A DNA stretch of 64,000 bases from Nitrospinales bacterium (GTDB lineage: Bacteria > Nitrospinota > Nitrospinia > Nitrospinales > VA-1), in contig OZ253496.1 of the NCBI GenBank assembly GCA_965262115.1, positions 2,176,001-2,240,000 on the forward strand. Direction: 5' to 3'. The translations under genes and the position numbers were made by a program. The notes under the pieces were generated by a model. The model ran no database searches, had not been told where the DNA came from, and was given only the letters and a program-made list of their open reading frames with translations. Positions 55,797 through 63,995 of this stretch are shown piece by piece. The stretch's first letter is position 1. The number at the start of each line of letters is the position of its first letter.

Positions 55797-56201
55797 TCAG
55801 GAAGATTCTGCCTTGTGCAGGACGAGAGAGGCGGAGTTGATGCAGTAGCGAAGCCCGGTAGGGTCCGGACCGTCTTCAAAGACATGGCCCAGATGGCAAT
55901 CGCATTTGCTACACAACACTTCAGTCCTACGCATAAAGAAAAGAGTGTCCTGTTCGGTGGCAATACTTTCGGGGCGGAGAGGCTCGTAATAACTCGGCCA
56001 CCCGGTGCCTGAATCAAATTTAGCGATGGAAGAAAACAGAGGCGTATCGCAACATACGCAATGATAGTTTCCCCGGTCATGACAGTCCCAATGCTTTCCG
56101 GAGAAGGCCTGCTCGGTTCCTTTTTTCCGACAGATTTTAAACTGTTCTTCGGTCAGAATTTCCCGCCACTCGCTTTCGGTTTTTGTGATTTTTTCCGACA
56201 A
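55797..56201 (-). CDS. msrB: Peptide-methionine (R)-S-oxide reductase
   Basis: KFDSGTGWPS, HLGHVFEDGP, RYCINSAS. Confidence 0.96.
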   Translation of the reverse strand: MSEKITKTESEWREILTEEQFKICRKKGTEQAFSGKHWDCHDRGNYHCVCCDTPLFSSIAKFDSGTGWPSYYEPLRPESIATEQDTLFFMRRTEVLCSKCDCHLGHVFEDGPDPTGLRYCINSASLVLHKAESS

Positions 56202-56215
56202 ATCCTGTTGCCTCC

Positions 56216-56509
56216 CTAAAAAGTTCTGATTAATTTTTTTTCTGCGATCAATCGTTTAATTTTTTCTTTTACTTCAGGACTCATATTTATGTCCTCGAGA
56301 ACTTTGGATTCATCCTTTCCCATCGACCGGGTTATCCTGCAGATGATTTCCAATTGTTTCCGATATATTTCGCAAAGCTCGCATATGGCAAGATGCATTT
56401 TAAGCCGGATCCTGCTCAAAAAAGTGAGAGGATGGTCCTGGCTTTCCGAAATAAGTGGATAGACATCCTTGCATGCCATTTTAAGCGTTTTTAGCATTCC
56501 ATTCATCAT
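56216..56509 (-). CDS. zf-HC2 (ZAS) anti-sigma factor
   Basis: MAC...HLAICELC (HxxxCxxC); downstream of the ECF sigma. Confidence 0.85.
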   Translation of the reverse strand: MMNGMLKTLKMACKDVYPLISESQDHPLTFLSRIRLKMHLAICELCEIYRKQLEIICRITRSMGKDESKVLEDINMSPEVKEKIKRLIAEKKLIRTF

Positions 56510-56521
56510 AAAATCCTATCC

Positions 56522-57082
56522 CTATTTTGCGTTGAGCCAGTTCGACTCCAGGCAAAGTTTGAGCTGGTTTCTGGCACGGTGCAATATGACCCACAAATTA
56601 GTCGGTTTTATATTGAATTCTTTACAGATTTCGTCGGAACTCAACCCATCCATTTCTTTCAGGACAAAGACCCGGTGAAATTTTTCCGGCAACCCTTTCA
56701 TGCATTTAGCCAGAATCTGGGCAAGTTCTTTATTTTCAGCGGCTTTTTCATGGTCCACGTTCCAGTTCACCGGCTTGGGAACCATATGTTCGGCGGCATC
56801 AAAATGAATCCGGTCGGATTCCTCTGCAGTCAAATCGATGGAAATATTCTTTTTGGAGCTTCTAAAATAATCCATGGTTTTATGTTTCAGGATTCCGAAT
56901 AGCCAAGTTTTTTCCGATGATCTACCGGCAAAGCTGTGTTGTGATTTTAATGCGGCAAAAAATGTGGCCTGAACCAGCTCTTCAGCGGCCTCAGGGTCTT
57001 TCACCCTGACAAGCGTAAAGCGGTACATCATATCCGCATAGTTTTCCACCCATTGTTGTGGTTCTAAAGTCTCTTGGCTCAT
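56522..57082 (-). CDS. ECF sigma-70 factor
   Basis: AEELVQATF, TWLFGILKHK, EIC..FNI...NLWVILHRAR. Confidence 0.92.
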   Translation of the reverse strand: MSQETLEPQQWVENYADMMYRFTLVRVKDPEAAEELVQATFFAALKSQHSFAGRSSEKTWLFGILKHKTMDYFRSSKKNISIDLTAEESDRIHFDAAEHMVPKPVNWNVDHEKAAENKELAQILAKCMKGLPEKFHRVFVLKEMDGLSSDEICKEFNIKPTNLWVILHRARNQLKLCLESNWLNAK

Positions 57083-57663: not shown

Positions 57664-58647
57664 TCAGTGCAAGGGGCCTTTGCTCACTGGCTTCACGCCT
57701 AGTGGTTCTTTGATGGCTACCTCATAAAACTGCTTCACAAATGATTTGAACAGTTTGACCGGATTGAATGAAATATCTATCGGGTAAGCCTGTTTGAAAT
57801 CCTCAACAGCGAAAGTCCGGTAATCTGTGATCCCTGAAATCTCCATGTTTTCCAAATGAAACTGGCCGAACTGTTTGAGCCTTGCTGCTTCCAAAGCATA
57901 AACCCTGTCCAGAGGAATGTTTAACAGATCGGCAAAAACCCGGTCGAGAGCGGTCATGTCTTTCGATGCCCCCATCACTCCAAGGGGGTAGGGCGTTCCG
58001 TTGATCGGGCCTTGCCCCTGCATGGCCTGAATACCATCGGCGATGGTCAGGCAGGGGTTGACGTGACGAGCAATATCTATCAGCATTTTCCCGAACTTAA
58101 GCTTGTCGTTTTTAACCAGGCAATGAAGGGCCGGCTTGCGTTTGCCGATCACCAATCCGAACAGGTTTTTAATGCCCAGCGTCATGGTCATCTGGCAATG
58201 CGATTTAACTTTTGGGAGATTAATGATTTGGTCATAGTGTTCCAGGCAACCGGCTATTTTCAGATGCGGAACCTGTTCTGTATTTTCGAATGGGATAGGG
58301 TCGGTCAAGGGCAGGATCTGCGCGCCATATTTTTTTTCCAGAAAGCCATACCCGGCTTTGTCAGCCACCGCCGATAAACTGCCCAGAGCGGGACTATCGC
58401 TGACAACGATTTGTTGGACCGACAGGTCCTTAAGAACCCGGCACACTGCCTCCACCACCACGGGGTGAGTGGTGACACAGCGTTCGGGTTTGAACCCCCG
58501 TAAAAGATTGGGTTTCAAAAGAACCCTCTGACCTAGGCCGAACAGGGCTGCTTCAGGGTCCAGGACTTTCAGAGAGTTCCGGACAAACTGCTCCACGTTC
58601 TCCAGTGAATAATCTTCAATTTTTTGTAAGTGGACTTTTGATTTCAT
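57664..58647 (-). CDS. DUF362 domain protein
   Basis: VLLKPNLL, TTHP, INLPKVKSH, KNLFG, MQGQGP. Confidence 0.88.
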   Translation of the reverse strand: MKSKVHLQKIEDYSLENVEQFVRNSLKVLDPEAALFGLGQRVLLKPNLLRGFKPERCVTTHPVVVEAVCRVLKDLSVQQIVVSDSPALGSLSAVADKAGYGFLEKKYGAQILPLTDPIPFENTEQVPHLKIAGCLEHYDQIINLPKVKSHCQMTMTLGIKNLFGLVIGKRKPALHCLVKNDKLKFGKMLIDIARHVNPCLTIADGIQAMQGQGPINGTPYPLGVMGASKDMTALDRVFADLLNIPLDRVYALEAARLKQFGQFHLENMEISGITDYRTFAVEDFKQAYPIDISFNPVKLFKSFVKQFYEVAIKEPLGVKPVSKGPLH

Positions 58648-58716: not shown

Positions 58717-61700
58717 TCAGGAGGGGGAATATAGCACTTTATAGATGCCCATATTTCTCAGCACATGTTTGACATAGCGGCGGGTTTCAGGGTAGGGGAT
58801 GGATTCGATGAATACGTCCTGATCGCTCAAATGTCCGAATCGTTTCAGCCATTTCTTCAGGACATGGGGGCCGGCATTGTATGAAATCAGAATATGCATC
58901 CCGTTTTTGTTGAACCGTTTTTTCAACTGGCTGACATATTTCACACCCAGCCGGATGTTCAGATCAGGATCAAAGAGGGCATCGGTCTCAAAAGGTTTTT
59001 TCAATTTTGTTTTCGGGTAAAGTTCTTTTCCGGTGGCTGGCATGATTTGCATGAGCCCGCGAGCACCGGCAGGGGAAAGTGCCTGACTGTCAAAAAGACT
59101 TTCCTGGCGGATAATGCCGTTCACGAAAAAGGGGTCGACCTTGCGCGATTTGGCATAGGCCAGAACTGCTTCTTCGTAGGCGAGAGGAAAAAAATGCTTC
59201 CAGAATTTTGAAGAAATATTTTTCTCTTTGGCTTTGGTGGCGAAGTCTTTGTATAGATGTAAAAGCCTGAGTGATTCTGCATAGCCCTGCGCCTGATGAT
59301 AAAGCTGGGAAAGCCACAAAACCCCGGTCAGGTTTTTCCGCACAGTTTTTTGTAATTCTCCAATTTCGTTGCGGGCTTCCTGCGTCAATCCAAGCGTAGC
59401 CAGTTCGTTGGCCCGGATGTGATGAAACTTTTCCCGCTCGCTGAGAGGCCGTCCCAGTTGCAGGCTTTCTTCTTTGGAAGATGACTTTTGTTGGGGCGTT
59501 TCGAGTTTGACATCCAAGGCCAGGAGCCTGTCTTTAGCGCGGATGCCGTGAAACGTGTAGGGGTAAAGCTCAGCGACTTTGGCATACAAATCGCGGGCCA
59601 CATCTTTTTTGTTCAGTTTTTCTGCCGATTTGGCGCTCCAATACAAGTTGTATTCGATAAACGATTTATCAGGGAATCGAGTGGCCGCGTCCTGGAACTT
59701 GTTGAAGGCTTGTTCAAATTTTCCATCGAGATAATGGACCCAACCCAGCCGCCAGCCGGCCCACTGCGCATAACCTTCATTAGGATATTTTTCCAAAGCG
59801 GTCTTGTAGTTTTTTAGCGCTTCAGGAAAGTTTTTGCGTTCTTCATAAATCTTTCCGAGAAAAAACTGCGCCTTCACTGCCAACTCTGTTGAAGGGGCGT
59901 CCTGCGTGACTTCCTTAAAATATTTGGCCCCCGCCATCGGTTGGCCCAGGTTCCAAAAGTTTCTGCCGATGTCGAATTTGGCGTTTTGCACCTTGGCGTG
60001 GTGAGGATATGTTTTCAAAAATTGTTTTAAAACTTTGTTGGCTTTTTTACGATCTCTAAGTCCTCCATGCGCCCGGGCCAGGAAAAAATAAAATCGTCCC
60101 GGTAAAAGCTTGTTTTTCTTTTGCAGTTTCTGGCCTTCCTGAATGATTTCTTTGTAACGCACGTTTTCAAACAACCCTTGAATGCGGTTGGTGTACTCTC
60201 TTAAAGTTAGCGGAACCTCTTTAACCGCTTGCAAAGCCGACAGATGCTTGAGTGCCATTTCTGCCTCAGGCGTCTGATCATGGTTGGGATATTGGATGTG
60301 AAGTTTGCGGAAATTCAAATAAGCTTCGGCTGGTTTTCCGGACTGTTCCTGAGTCCTTGCCAGTTGGAAAATCAGGTCAGGCAGAAATTCGCAAAACTTG
60401 CGGCGGCTGAAATCCTTAGTGATCGACCGGATAGTTTCTTCCAGCGTTTTCATTCCTGCTTCTGTATTCTGCAACCGGATTTGTGCATGGGCAAGAATCA
60501 GTTGGAGTTTGGCATAGAGAAGGGTGTTTGGGCTGTGCTTGAGGAGTTCGAGAGTGTTGTCGCGGGCTTTTTCATGTTTGCCTGCTTGCACCTGTGCCTG
60601 GATTAAATGGAAGCGGATATAATCTTCCACCTCTTTGTAATTTTTGCTCAATGGTTCGAGAAGCTTTATGGTTTCTTCCGGCTTTCCCTGTTCGGCGTGA
60701 ATGAGGGCGAGTAAAAACCGGGCGCGTTTGGCTTCCATTGAACCTGGTTTTTGATTTTGCAGTGCAAGAAGGCTGTTTTTAGCCTTGCTCCAATGTTTTT
60801 TCTGGAAAAGTTTTTTAGCCTTTTCATAGTGCGTAGGCTTGGCTTCGCCTGTTTGTGCAAAGCCCAGGAACATGGCCAGGAAGCAGGCGGCGACTTTGGG
60901 TAGAAGGGAAAGCAGTTTATCCGCCATGGTTTTGGGCGTGTCTTTGGAGCCCACCGGCAGTTTATCGGCGTTATTCATTTTTCTGAACCAGGTCAACTGT
61001 TTTTTAGCGTAGTGCCGGGTTTCCCTTTTAATCTCATAGGTGGCGCGGTCCAGATCCAAACTGCCTTGAAGATATTGAATCATTTGTGCGTAACCGATGC
61101 TTTTGCAGGGTTTCAGATCCGGACTGTAGCCACGCTCCAAAATGCTTTGAACTTCTCGGGCAAGCCCGTCCTTAATCATTTTGTCCACACGCTGATCGAT
61201 TTGGGAATATAGCTCGGTCCGGTCACTCTCCAGAATGAAGGTGTGGATAGGGAACTGGCTTGCGGTCGGGGAGTCGCTTTCATGAAATTCCGAAAAACGT
61301 TTTCCCGTGTCGAGATAAACCTCTAAAGCGCGTTCGATGCGCAGGGAGTCTGTTTCAGAAATTTTTGTGGCATATTCAGGGTCAACGCGTTGGAGCTCCT
61401 GATAAACTTTTTCAACGCCCTGGTCACGAATGTCCTGCCGGATTTTTTCCCGGATTTCGGGAGAGGCTCCTTCGGCGCAATCGTAATCTTCGGTCAGGAC
61501 CTTTATATAGAGTCCGGTGCCGCCAACCAGAATAGGAATTTTATTACGACTCATGAGTTCGCGAATGATTTCCAAGGCCCGTGTTTTAAAATCGAAAGCG
61601 TTAAACTCTTCATCAGGTTCGAGAATATCGATCAAATGATGGGGGGTCTCCTCCCTCACTGCCAGCGGAGGTTTAGCGGTGCCGATGTCGAAATATTTAT

Positions 61701-61815
61701 AGACCTGCAACGAATCGGCGCTGATGATTTCCGTGTCCAGCTTTCGGGCAAGGGCCAGAGCTGTTTCACTTTTTCCCGAATTCGTTGGGCCGGTTAATAT
61801 AATTAAAGGAAGCAT
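58717..61815 (-). CDS. miaA: tRNA dimethylallyltransferase fused in frame to a TPR / soluble lytic transglycosylase
   Basis: GPTNSGKS, DSLQVY..DIGTAKP, VGGTGLY, YAKKQLTWFR; then a hydrophobic segment, TPRs, RQES, GLMQIMP, YNAGP, ETRRYV; no stop between. Confidence 0.88.
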   Translation of the reverse strand: MLPLIILTGPTNSGKSETALALARKLDTEIISADSLQVYKYFDIGTAKPPLAVREETPHHLIDILEPDEEFNAFDFKTRALEIIRELMSRNKIPILVGGTGLYIKVLTEDYDCAEGASPEIREKIRQDIRDQGVEKVYQELQRVDPEYATKISETDSLRIERALEVYLDTGKRFSEFHESDSPTASQFPIHTFILESDRTELYSQIDQRVDKMIKDGLAREVQSILERGYSPDLKPCKSIGYAQMIQYLQGSLDLDRATYEIKRETRHYAKKQLTWFRKMNNADKLPVGSKDTPKTMADKLLSLLPKVAACFLAMFLGFAQTGEAKPTHYEKAKKLFQKKHWSKAKNSLLALQNQKPGSMEAKRARFLLALIHAEQGKPEETIKLLEPLSKNYKEVEDYIRFHLIQAQVQAGKHEKARDNTLELLKHSPNTLLYAKLQLILAHAQIRLQNTEAGMKTLEETIRSITKDFSRRKFCEFLPDLIFQLARTQEQSGKPAEAYLNFRKLHIQYPNHDQTPEAEMALKHLSALQAVKEVPLTLREYTNRIQGLFENVRYKEIIQEGQKLQKKNKLLPGRFYFFLARAHGGLRDRKKANKVLKQFLKTYPHHAKVQNAKFDIGRNFWNLGQPMAGAKYFKEVTQDAPSTELAVKAQFFLGKIYEERKNFPEALKNYKTALEKYPNEGYAQWAGWRLGWVHYLDGKFEQAFNKFQDAATRFPDKSFIEYNLYWSAKSAEKLNKKDVARDLYAKVAELYPYTFHGIRAKDRLLALDVKLETPQQKSSSKEESLQLGRPLSEREKFHHIRANELATLGLTQEARNEIGELQKTVRKNLTGVLWLSQLYHQAQGYAESLRLLHLYKDFATKAKEKNISSKFWKHFFPLAYEEAVLAYAKSRKVDPFFVNGIIRQESLFDSQALSPAGARGLMQIMPATGKELYPKTKLKKPFETDALFDPDLNIRLGVKYVSQLKKRFNKNGMHILISYNAGPHVLKKWLKRFGHLSDQDVFIESIPYPETRRYVKHVLRNMGIYKVLYSPS

Positions 61816-62503
61816 AAATCTTTTCCATTTCATTTGAATAGGCACCATCTTCATTATAGACCGCCAGCACAGGGGCCACGCTAAATTCGGCTTTTTTTCC
61901 TTTAAGGGCGGAAACCAGAACGATTTTTGCCGGAGCTTGATAATTGCCATGGACAAAACGTGCTTGGTTGGGATATAAATTTTTGCATTCCAGTTCCCGC
62001 ATGAGTTCGCCCAGTCGCTTGGGCGGATAGGCCAAGCTTATCTGTCCGCCTTTTTTCAGTAGCGGAGCAGATTTCTCCAGCAGGGAACTCATGCTGAGGG
62101 ACAGTTCGTGCCGGGCCAGGGCTTTGCCGGAATCGGGATTGGTCTGTCCCGTCTGAACCTTACGGTAAGGCGGATTGGAAACAATATGGTCAAAAGATTC
62201 GGGCTGCAGGTTTTCTGCTTCTTTCAGGAAATCACCTTGAATGAGAGTAATCTGCTGATCCATTGCATTTTTGTGAATATTTTTTTGTGCATGGGTGCAA
62301 TCCTGAATTTCAATGGCGGTTACTTCAAGCGTCGGTTGCCGGTGAACTATCAATAGAGGAATGATGCCGCAACCGGTGCCGATATCGAGCACCGACTGAT
62401 CCGGCAACAAGGGCATGAAATTGGCCAGCAGAAATGGTTCGATGGAATAGCGGTAGCCGGTATTTTCCTGGTCAATGACCAGTTCGGTTTTGGTGCTGTT
62501 CAC
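61766..62503 (-). CDS. tRNA1(Val) A37 N6-methyltransferase-like (TrmN6/YfiC)
   Basis: Q...GYRYSIE, LDIGTGCG, SNPPY, ARHE. Confidence 0.85.
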   Translation of the reverse strand: MNSTKTELVIDQENTGYRYSIEPFLLANFMPLLPDQSVLDIGTGCGIIPLLIVHRQPTLEVTAIEIQDCTHAQKNIHKNAMDQQITLIQGDFLKEAENLQPESFDHIVSNPPYRKVQTGQTNPDSGKALARHELSLSMSSLLEKSAPLLKKGGQISLAYPPKRLGELMRELECKNLYPNQARFVHGNYQAPAKIVLVSALKGKKAEFSVAPVLAVYNEDGAYSNEMEKIYASFNYINRPNEFGKK

Positions 62504-63356: not shown

Positions 63357-63617
63357 TTATCTATAGGATTCTCTGCGGTGCAGGACACCGATTATGTCGA
63401 TGATTTTTTCTTCTTGCTGGATGGAATAGAGAATCCGGAAATCGCCGACACGGATTCTCCAGAGGTTCTTTTTACCTTTTAGTTTAATGCAACCTTGGGG
63501 GCGGGGTGTTTTGGCTAGGGACTCAATCTTTGGGAAAATTCTTGCAACAGTGGGGGAATCCAGTTTTTCCAGTTCTTGACGGGCGGATCGGGCAAAGGTG
63601 ATGGAAAAATCACTCAA
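63357..63617 (-). CDS. RelE/ParE family toxin
   Basis: PRPQGCIKLKG, WRIRVGDFRILY, HRRESYR. Confidence 0.92.
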   Translation of the reverse strand: MSDFSITFARSARQELEKLDSPTVARIFPKIESLAKTPRPQGCIKLKGKKNLWRIRVGDFRILYSIQQEEKIIDIIGVLHRRESYR

Positions 63618-63801
63618 CCAGATTGCCTCCGTTTTTTAGTTTTTCTTTCACCGCTTCCAGGGTTTCACGGGGTTCGTGGGCTCTCTGGTCGGCAATCAGG
63701 CTGTCTTCCAGATCCTCCCAGAGTTGGCCGTGTTGTTTCAGGTCGATAACCACTGCCTTTTTTTTGCCCTTGTCATCGATAATATATTCAATGCCTTCCA
63801 T
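63610..63801 (-). CDS. Cognate antitoxin
   Basis: YIIDDKGKKKAVVID...WEDLED; overlaps the toxin start; GGA RBS. Confidence 0.8.
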   Translation of the reverse strand: MEGIEYIIDDKGKKKAVVIDLKQHGQLWEDLEDSLIADQRAHEPRETLEAVKEKLKNGGNLVE

Positions 63802-63902
63802 CAGCTTTCCTTTCTCTGGACATTTTTGATAGTCCCGATATTTTACATGAGTATTGCTGGATTGAGAAAGAAAAGTTGTAATGACAAACCCCTGAATGTG
63901 AA

Positions 63903-63995
63903 TACCCCTACGGGGCATGAAGTCTAAGGTTAGTCATCACATCACCCCAGCCCTTCTGGTATCTCTTCATTAAGTCTTCATGCCCGGAACGGGTA
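63903..63995. repeat. Inverted pair of TACCC-N-GGGCATGAA hairpin repeats
   Basis: tacccctacggggcatgaag ... cttcatgcccggaacgggta; same motif at 28300, 35210, 35271. Confidence 0.65.

Follow-up and report, generated by a model that had tools for sequence, protein, structure and literature searches.

Several described proteins share parts of an arrangement found in a Nitrospinales bacterium, where a single open reading frame on the minus strand joins the tRNA-prenylating enzyme MiaA, through an internal segment resembling a signal peptide, to a TPR-containing lytic transglycosylase (Slt). The gene lies in a 64,000-nucleotide stretch of contig OZ253496.1 (assembly GCA_965262115.1, positions 2,176,001 to 2,240,000), which we call the window. 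Known MiaA proteins (TIGR00174; E. coli 2ZM5 and 3FOZ, B. halodurans 3EXA) match the first part of the frame over the whole fold to the last helix, but the fusion has no stop past that helix and runs on into a predicted export signal and periplasmic enzyme. Slt70-like enzymes (Pseudomonas Slt 5OHU, E. coli Slt70 1QSA and 1QTE, Neisseria LtgA) have the same superhelix and SLT domain with its catalytic Glu, and the stand-alone TPR-Slt proteins of sister orders can be aligned to the fusion from their signal peptides onward. The fusion differs from the Slt70-like enzymes in that its signal peptide is internal and without a start codon, and in that its N-terminal region scores as TPR.

Precedents also exist for the junction between the two enzymes. 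FbcH, the cytochrome b-c1 precursor of Bradyrhizobium japonicum, is encoded by one gene and yields two mature proteins split at an internal signal-like segment; these are two membrane subunits of one complex, whereas the fusion combines a cytoplasmic and a periplasmic enzyme that share no pathway. RsiV of B. subtilis and C. difficile, as described in PMC9044953, has a cytoplasmic part, one membrane segment, a signal-peptidase site and an external domain, as predicted here, and is acted on second by a site-2 protease, as may also happen to the fusion. In RsiV, however, the N-terminal part is short and inhibitory and its cleavage is ligand-gated and destructive, whereas each half of the fusion is a full enzyme and their pathways are unrelated. 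Single-pass N-in proteins of the RodZ type (PMC5674894) likewise place a folded cytoplasmic domain ahead of the targeting segment, but the segment of RodZ is more hydrophobic than the junction described here, lacks a cleavage motif and stays as an anchor. Processing by signal peptidase at an internal site is thus already known in bacteria, from RsiV and FbcH; what appears new is the joining of two unrelated soluble enzymes, meant for opposite sides of the membrane, in one frame without a conserved internal start. Our literature search, which lay outside subscription papers and supplements, found no description of a MiaA-lytic transglycosylase fusion, and the main text of the N. gracilis genome paper (PMC3578206) contains neither the word "transglycosylase" nor the word "fusion".

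The product of the gene is probably made as one chain that signal peptidase I cuts after Ala325, to give a periplasmic Slt and a cytoplasmic MiaA on a membrane stub. No stop interrupts the frame across its 1032 residues, and translation, Pfam and TIGR00174 bore out the original prediction of a full MiaA followed by a signal-like segment inside the chain, TPRs and an SLT domain that is intact; Pfam places IPPT at residues 37-279 and SLT at 885-1000, with TPR matches in between. The read check proposed for the junction gave the same picture, contigs of four out of four runs, from four studies, spanning it with no indel listed there, and the fused miaA is the only copy in the 2.68-Mb single-contig genome. 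The fusion also proved to be common to relatives. Our phylum set comprised 120 genomes, 111 of them with a MiaA match (96 in the order Nitrospinales and 15 in five sister families), and in 93 of the 96 the junction frame is open, without any stop there. The other three are two genomes whose assemblies lack the junction (G008 and G033) and one in which the frame is open to the contig end at about residue 326 (G104). Fusion-bearing genomes belong to four families, with identity down to 36%. Protein comparisons were made on 107 homologues, being those of at least 990 residues among the first 115 proteins together with the window's own, and genomic comparisons on 70 loci; homologue names include Nitrospina, Nitrospinaceae and Nitrospinales, and the annotation label is MiaA only.

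The MiaA half scores 306.8 bits against the TIGR00174 miaA model (cut-off 148.65). Its alignment with E. coli MiaA (2zm5_A) runs to residue 304, with residues 297-305 corresponding approximately to E. coli 303-310, and the structure model (mean predicted local distance difference test score, pLDDT, 88) matches E. coli MiaA in Foldseek with a TM-score of 0.83-0.85 by target length; residues 294-304 are modelled as a confident helix. The spacing from Trp276 to Pro306 is 31 residues in all 107 proteins. T11 and K15 of the P-loop are kept in 99/99 rows with letters at those positions, D34, the catalytic Asp, in 103/103, and the conserved arginines R159, R162 and R209 in 107/107; the conserved columns comprise the P-loop, Asp34, TAK, GGT and KRQxTW. 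The genome also encodes MiaB, over its cut-off, and all nine tRNAs with A36 have A36-A37-A38. The active site looks working, and this half is predicted to form N6-isopentenyladenosine (i6A) at position 37.

The Slt half scores 95.9 bits against PF01464 (vs 21.3), and the catalytic ES (E905-S906), GLMQ and YNAG motifs are present where the original prediction had placed them. E905 aligns with E503 of Pseudomonas Slt, for which the title of structure 6fc4 names E503Q as an inactive mutant, and E905, G920, M922, Q923, Y979-G982, E1010 and T1011 are invariant in all 107 homologues. By Foldseek the model matches the Slt structures 5OHU and 1QTE over 650-700 columns. While this half passes neither the Slt70 model PRK11619 (120.6 of 536 bits) nor the flagellar model NF047373 (178.4 of 234 bits), and so is filed under neither, its sequence suggests that it works like Slt70, and both enzymes look intact. 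In the window's genus there is one TPR-Slt match per genome in 14/14 relatives, so the Slt half probably has to be exported; annotation as MiaA only hides what appears to be the sole TPR-Slt of the genus. Many members of the order (among G024-G060) have a second TPR-Slt, an 800-900-residue frame of which only the C-terminal 400 residues match, and this was not found in the window's genus with the same query at E 1e-25.

We examined the junction with our own rules for core and motif, one rule serving for all sets. Of the segment that had been quoted as signal-peptide-like, the hydrophobic part is indeed signal-like, but residues 297-305 are the last helix of MiaA and not an n-region. That helix is followed by Pro306, which is Pro in 106/107 proteins (one change on the tree) and 68/70 loci, and residues 307-327 have a pLDDT under 50. 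The hydrophobic core that follows, with a median length of 14 residues in the 70 loci, has undergone 265 changes on the tree, yet shows one charged residue in 1422 aligned; ahead of it the net charge of residues 298-307 is positive (+1 or more) in 64/70 loci, and residue 300 is Lys or Arg in 107/107 proteins.

Position 325 (-1 to the predicted cut) is Ala in 100/107 proteins and has changed five times on the tree, against 24-39 times at positions 320-324 and 326-329, while position 323 (-3) is a small residue in 103/107, leaving the small class only four times in 26 changes. Small residues at -3 and -1 are the motif of signal peptidase I (PMC3509430). A small-x-Ala word is present in 99/107 proteins, compared with a shuffle mean of 62 and maximum of 77, and, in an alignment-free count, in 65/70 loci, compared with 38 and a maximum of 51. 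The model places Ala325 in a linker of low confidence, so packing does not account for its conservation.

Controls from the same organisms bear on whether such a segment would be cleaved. Small-x-Ala follows the core in 60/70 junctions and in 9/12 sequences of a secreted TPR protein, but in 1/30 of RodZ and 0/30 of PBP2, counts that still include some rows read in a wrong frame (about six of RodZ, one of PBP2), a flaw that tells against the case for cleavage; for the outgroup Slt proteins the figure is 5/10, or 9/10 with Gly or Ser allowed. The median number of strongly hydrophobic residues is 9 at the junction, 10 in the secreted TPR protein, 12 in outgroup Slt, and 13 in both RodZ and PBP2. 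Uncleaved signals have a longer hydrophobic stretch (PMC9360617), and the junction has neither the strong hydrophobicity nor the absence of a motif that would mark an uncleaved anchor. Stand-alone Slt relatives align to it via their signal peptides. The junction therefore resembles the cleavable signal peptides of its own organisms, not the anchors of RodZ and PBP2, in sequence; it does not stand at an N-terminus after a start codon, having 305 residues ahead of it. We also considered a lipoprotein (signal peptidase II) signal and rejected it, since a lipobox-like word occurs in 23/70 loci only, and Cys311, present in 69/107 proteins, stands at the start of the core instead of its end.

In the pathway that we propose, MiaA (residues 1-305) would be made first and fold in the cytoplasm, and residues 308-319 would engage the Sec translocon with their N-side in, so that the TPR-SLT part is exported. 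LepB would then cut at 325/326, giving an 82.3-kDa periplasmic Slt and a 37.0-kDa MiaA on a 20-residue stub, after which RseP may remove the stub and so release MiaA, a step whose chances we put at about even if cleavage occurs. Two housekeeping enzymes with no relation to each other would thereby be produced in a one-to-one ratio and end up in different compartments. LepB and RseP are both encoded, over cut-off, and published precedents make the steps plausible by analogy: SecA targets RodZ, whose segment is internal and behind a cytoplasmic domain (PMC5674894); RsiV is processed by signal peptidase and then by RasP (PMC9044953); and RseP degrades detached signal peptides as well as N-in segments with small external parts, HA-MBP-tagged signal peptides serving as substrates (PMC10470546). 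The junction has an Ala-Cys bond at 310-311, as at the RseP site reported for RseA (PMC4597795), to which we gave no weight because RseP substrates have no common motif (PMC10470546).

If the cut is real, the gene encodes a polyprotein, natural to a bacterium, whose leader for a periplasmic enzyme is an entire cytoplasmic enzyme, and a captured signal peptide works behind 305 folded residues and stays fixed throughout an order of marine nitrite-oxidising bacteria. It would also be well suited to testing what Sec, LepB and RseP do with an internal signal. Its significance is limited in that both halves are ordinary enzymes whose functional coupling is unsupported.

A number of observations weigh against cleavage after Ala325. 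Ala is missing at the aligned -1 position of 7/107 proteins (six Thr, one Arg), and 5/70 loci have Gly or Ser sites only. Counting the MiaA helix, the hydropathy over the 19 residues 301-319 is 2.03, near anchor values, and by our own rule the PBP2 core (15 residues) is in effect no longer than that of the junction (14). The n-side carries little positive charge, in most cases +1 or +2, where RodZ is described as having a basic cluster (PMC5674894). Kinship among the sequences makes the shuffle controls overstate significance, and the case for cleavage is built on sequence rules of our own. To these must be added two features around Met280, considered below with internal starts.

The whole chain might instead stay in the inner membrane as a single-pass protein, with MiaA in the cytoplasm and TPR-SLT tethered in the periplasm. 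The original prediction had left the choice between a membrane-spanning and a signal-peptidase-cleaved polyprotein; its cleaved branch is the better supported, by the -3/-1 positions, the short core and the same-organism controls, and its membrane-spanning branch is the weaker, the anchors of these organisms being more hydrophobic and motif-free. It is true that no other 19-residue stretch of the protein is as hydrophobic as 301-319, that most homologues have 16-22 uncharged residues in a row past residue 307, and that RodZ proves such a topology workable (PMC5674894). Residues 301-305 belong to the MiaA helix, however, which leaves a core of about 14 residues with 9 strongly hydrophobic ones against 13 in RodZ and PBP2, and the contrast in small-x-Ala between the junction and these two anchors, together with the selection on -1 and -3 within a variable linker, is hard to explain without cleavage. 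We consider a permanent anchor unlikely.

Also unlikely is a transmembrane sensor in which MiaA would be tethered or cleared according to the export and cutting of Slt, so that Sec export or wall status sets the level of i6A or its 2-methylthio derivative (ms2i6A) at position 37; if this were true, export or wall status would govern how marine nitrite oxidisers decode codons that start with U. The suggestion of a fusion that tethers tRNA prenylation at the membrane and links it with wall turnover found no support: prior adjacency of the genes suffices to explain the fusion, and cleavage would separate MiaA from Slt.

Slt might also, or mainly, arise from an in-frame internal start, the full-length product still giving MiaA; the signal would then act like any N-terminal one. 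We regard this as quite improbable. The in-frame ATG noted at 60927 is present, as Met297, but it is not a conserved start: this position, within the last helix of MiaA, is Met in 2/107 proteins and ATG in 4/70 loci, and we rejected it. Met280 was likewise rejected as a universal start and is retained as a lesser alternative. In 50/70 loci codon 280 is ATG, and a dip in synonymous change lies just before it, in codons 265-290 (z about -2.3 in the combined analysis with the window's genus, the third-lowest non-overlapping segment of the gene), two features that count against a single cleaved chain. Without the window's genus the dip is only -1.4, compared with -5.2 for the true start region. 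Codons 266-307 hold no ATG, GTG or TTG in 12/70 loci, including all seven of one genus, and no ATG in 20/70; a Shine-Dalgarno-like word precedes codon 280 in 0/29 loci and codon 297 in 1/29; and an equivalent Met is present in a stand-alone MiaA (L039). With neither a stop behind miaA nor a second copy of it, the full-length chain would still need processing. A programmed frameshift ending MiaA was rejected, as there is no synonymous constraint past codon 290 in the combined analysis and a frameshift before residue 305 would cut the MiaA fold. The search for an internal promoter gave three promoter-like sites against 3.9 expected, none of them ahead of the junction.

Cleavage might, on the other hand, be conditional in the manner of RsiV, an envelope signal letting signal peptidase and RseP act and thereby altering the location or activity of MiaA. 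The topology matches that of RsiV as given in PMC9044953, the 31-residue spacing is fixed, Pro306 is nearly invariant, and none of the 93 genomes has reverted to two genes. The fixed spacing is accounted for by the MiaA fold, however, no feature that would shield the site was seen, the c-region being short, variable and like that of an ordinary signal, and the MiaA active site looks working whether tethered or free. We judge conditional cleavage very improbable.

That the fusion is a misassembly or a chance read-through of recent date can be dismissed: occasional read-through from miaA into a secreted protein is known (for example P0128, a single-member cluster), but the open frame in 93 genomes and the four indel-free studies refute this explanation.

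Other MiaA fusions put this in perspective. End-fusions of MiaA are common, in clusters with PF01168, PF06838, PF01790 and other domains. Fusions with PF01168 recur, some named Clostridia (P0126 and many clusters of about 530 residues), as do those with PF01790 (P0132, P0147, P0159). Among long-tailed MiaA proteins, 3/47 have a hydrophobic segment after MiaA, all in single-member clusters; in P0125, P0128 and P0120 MiaA is joined to part of an unrelated protein, namely a lipoprotein-like signal, signal peptide or membrane segment. In a verrucomicrobial relative of P0128 with 75% identity (L162, 2495-4632) the two genes are separate, overlap by 4 nucleotides and lie behind an lgt-like gene. Read-throughs thus arise sporadically, and order-wide fixation is the unusual feature here.

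The sister orders indicate how the fusion could have arisen. All 15 of their miaA loci end in a stop shortly past the last helix. In nine of them slt lies directly downstream in another frame, its possible starts falling from -14 to +136 nucleotides relative to the miaA stop; it is about 0.8 kb further on in one and not nearby in five. This adjacency of miaA and slt, often with overlap, is enough to explain the fusion. By parsimony on an unrooted comparison, we infer a single fusion of adjacent genes in the ancestor of the order, in which joining the frames would have lost the miaA stop and the slt start but left the h- and c-regions of slt itself in place. In an exhaustive search of 1.84 billion representatives with a profile, the 14 full-length fusions listed all scored at least 1109 bits and were followed by partial pieces; stand-alone proteins reached no more than 550 bits (Slt) and 436 bits (MiaA), and the best 150 matches contained no second MiaA+Slt lineage. 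One genome with 5% contamination (G079) has two fusion copies, on C12 and C39, and another (G095, C6) has a frame break within MiaA and an intact junction.

Features of the fusion gene and its neighbours (window positions).
Feature	Position	Strand	Remarks	Basis
Single open reading frame, MiaA - putative internal signal peptide - TPR - SLT	58717..61815	(-)	1032 residues, 119.2 kDa	
Complete MiaA fold	60901..61815	(-)	residues 1-305; last strand 283-287, last helix 294-304	TIGR00174, alignment, model
Met297	60925..60927	(-)	in-frame ATG within MiaA last helix	protein and locus counts
Pro306	60898..60900	(-)	hinge between MiaA last helix and hydrophobic core	column conservation
Hydrophobic core (h-region)	60859..60894	(-)	residues 308-319, uncharged, sequence variable	alignment, tree
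c-region	60841..60858	(-)	residues 320-325; Gly323 (-3), Ala325 (-1)	predicted signal peptidase I cut Ala325/Lys326
TPR-like alpha-helical superhelix	59506..60834	(-)	about residues 328-770	Pfam, model, Foldseek
SLT catalytic domain PF01464	58816..59163	(-)	residues 885-1000	Pfam
Glu905	59101-59103	(-)	SLT catalytic Glu	alignment
S-adenosylmethionine-dependent methyltransferase gene	61766..62503	(-)	upstream; overlaps miaA start by 50 nucleotides	best NCBIfam match TrmN
DUF362 gene	57664..58647	(-)	downstream; frequent but inconstant neighbour	Pfam

The match of the upstream gene to TrmN (tRNA A37 N6-methyltransferase) reaches 78.9 bits against a cut-off of 350. A TrmN-like gene also stands directly upstream of miaA in several members of the order and in one sister family (L040, L054, L082, L085, L087, L088), but not at all loci. 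Elsewhere in the window, on the minus strand, inspection by eye suggested a RelE/ParE-like gene preceded by a small partner (63357-63918), and an extracytoplasmic function (ECF) sigma factor accompanied by an MsrB-like gene and a small partner rich in Cys (55797-57082); the ECF sigma and SelR identities were confirmed in relatives only.

A rule-based scan of 1267 open reading frames of the genome found 35 with one internal hydrophobic segment, nine of these with the motif, of which seven look by eye like ordinary enzymes or unrelated segments. The one further candidate, at 2466631-2467827, was rejected, being a secreted TPR protein of the ordinary kind with an unconserved tandem repeat in front. 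The repeat (2466594-2467192; L089, 2594-3192) has a 96-bp unit in 6.2 copies at 98% identity and adds about 200 codons to the frame of this protein; the extension is absent from most relatives, and G019 has a similar stretch elsewhere. A C-terminal RodZ match at 1492688-1492891 (L126) contains a TAA stop unique among 31 genomes, either a broken gene or an assembly error, and the match to a MiaB-family methylthiotransferase paralogue at 1584316-1585583 on the minus strand is split over two frames.

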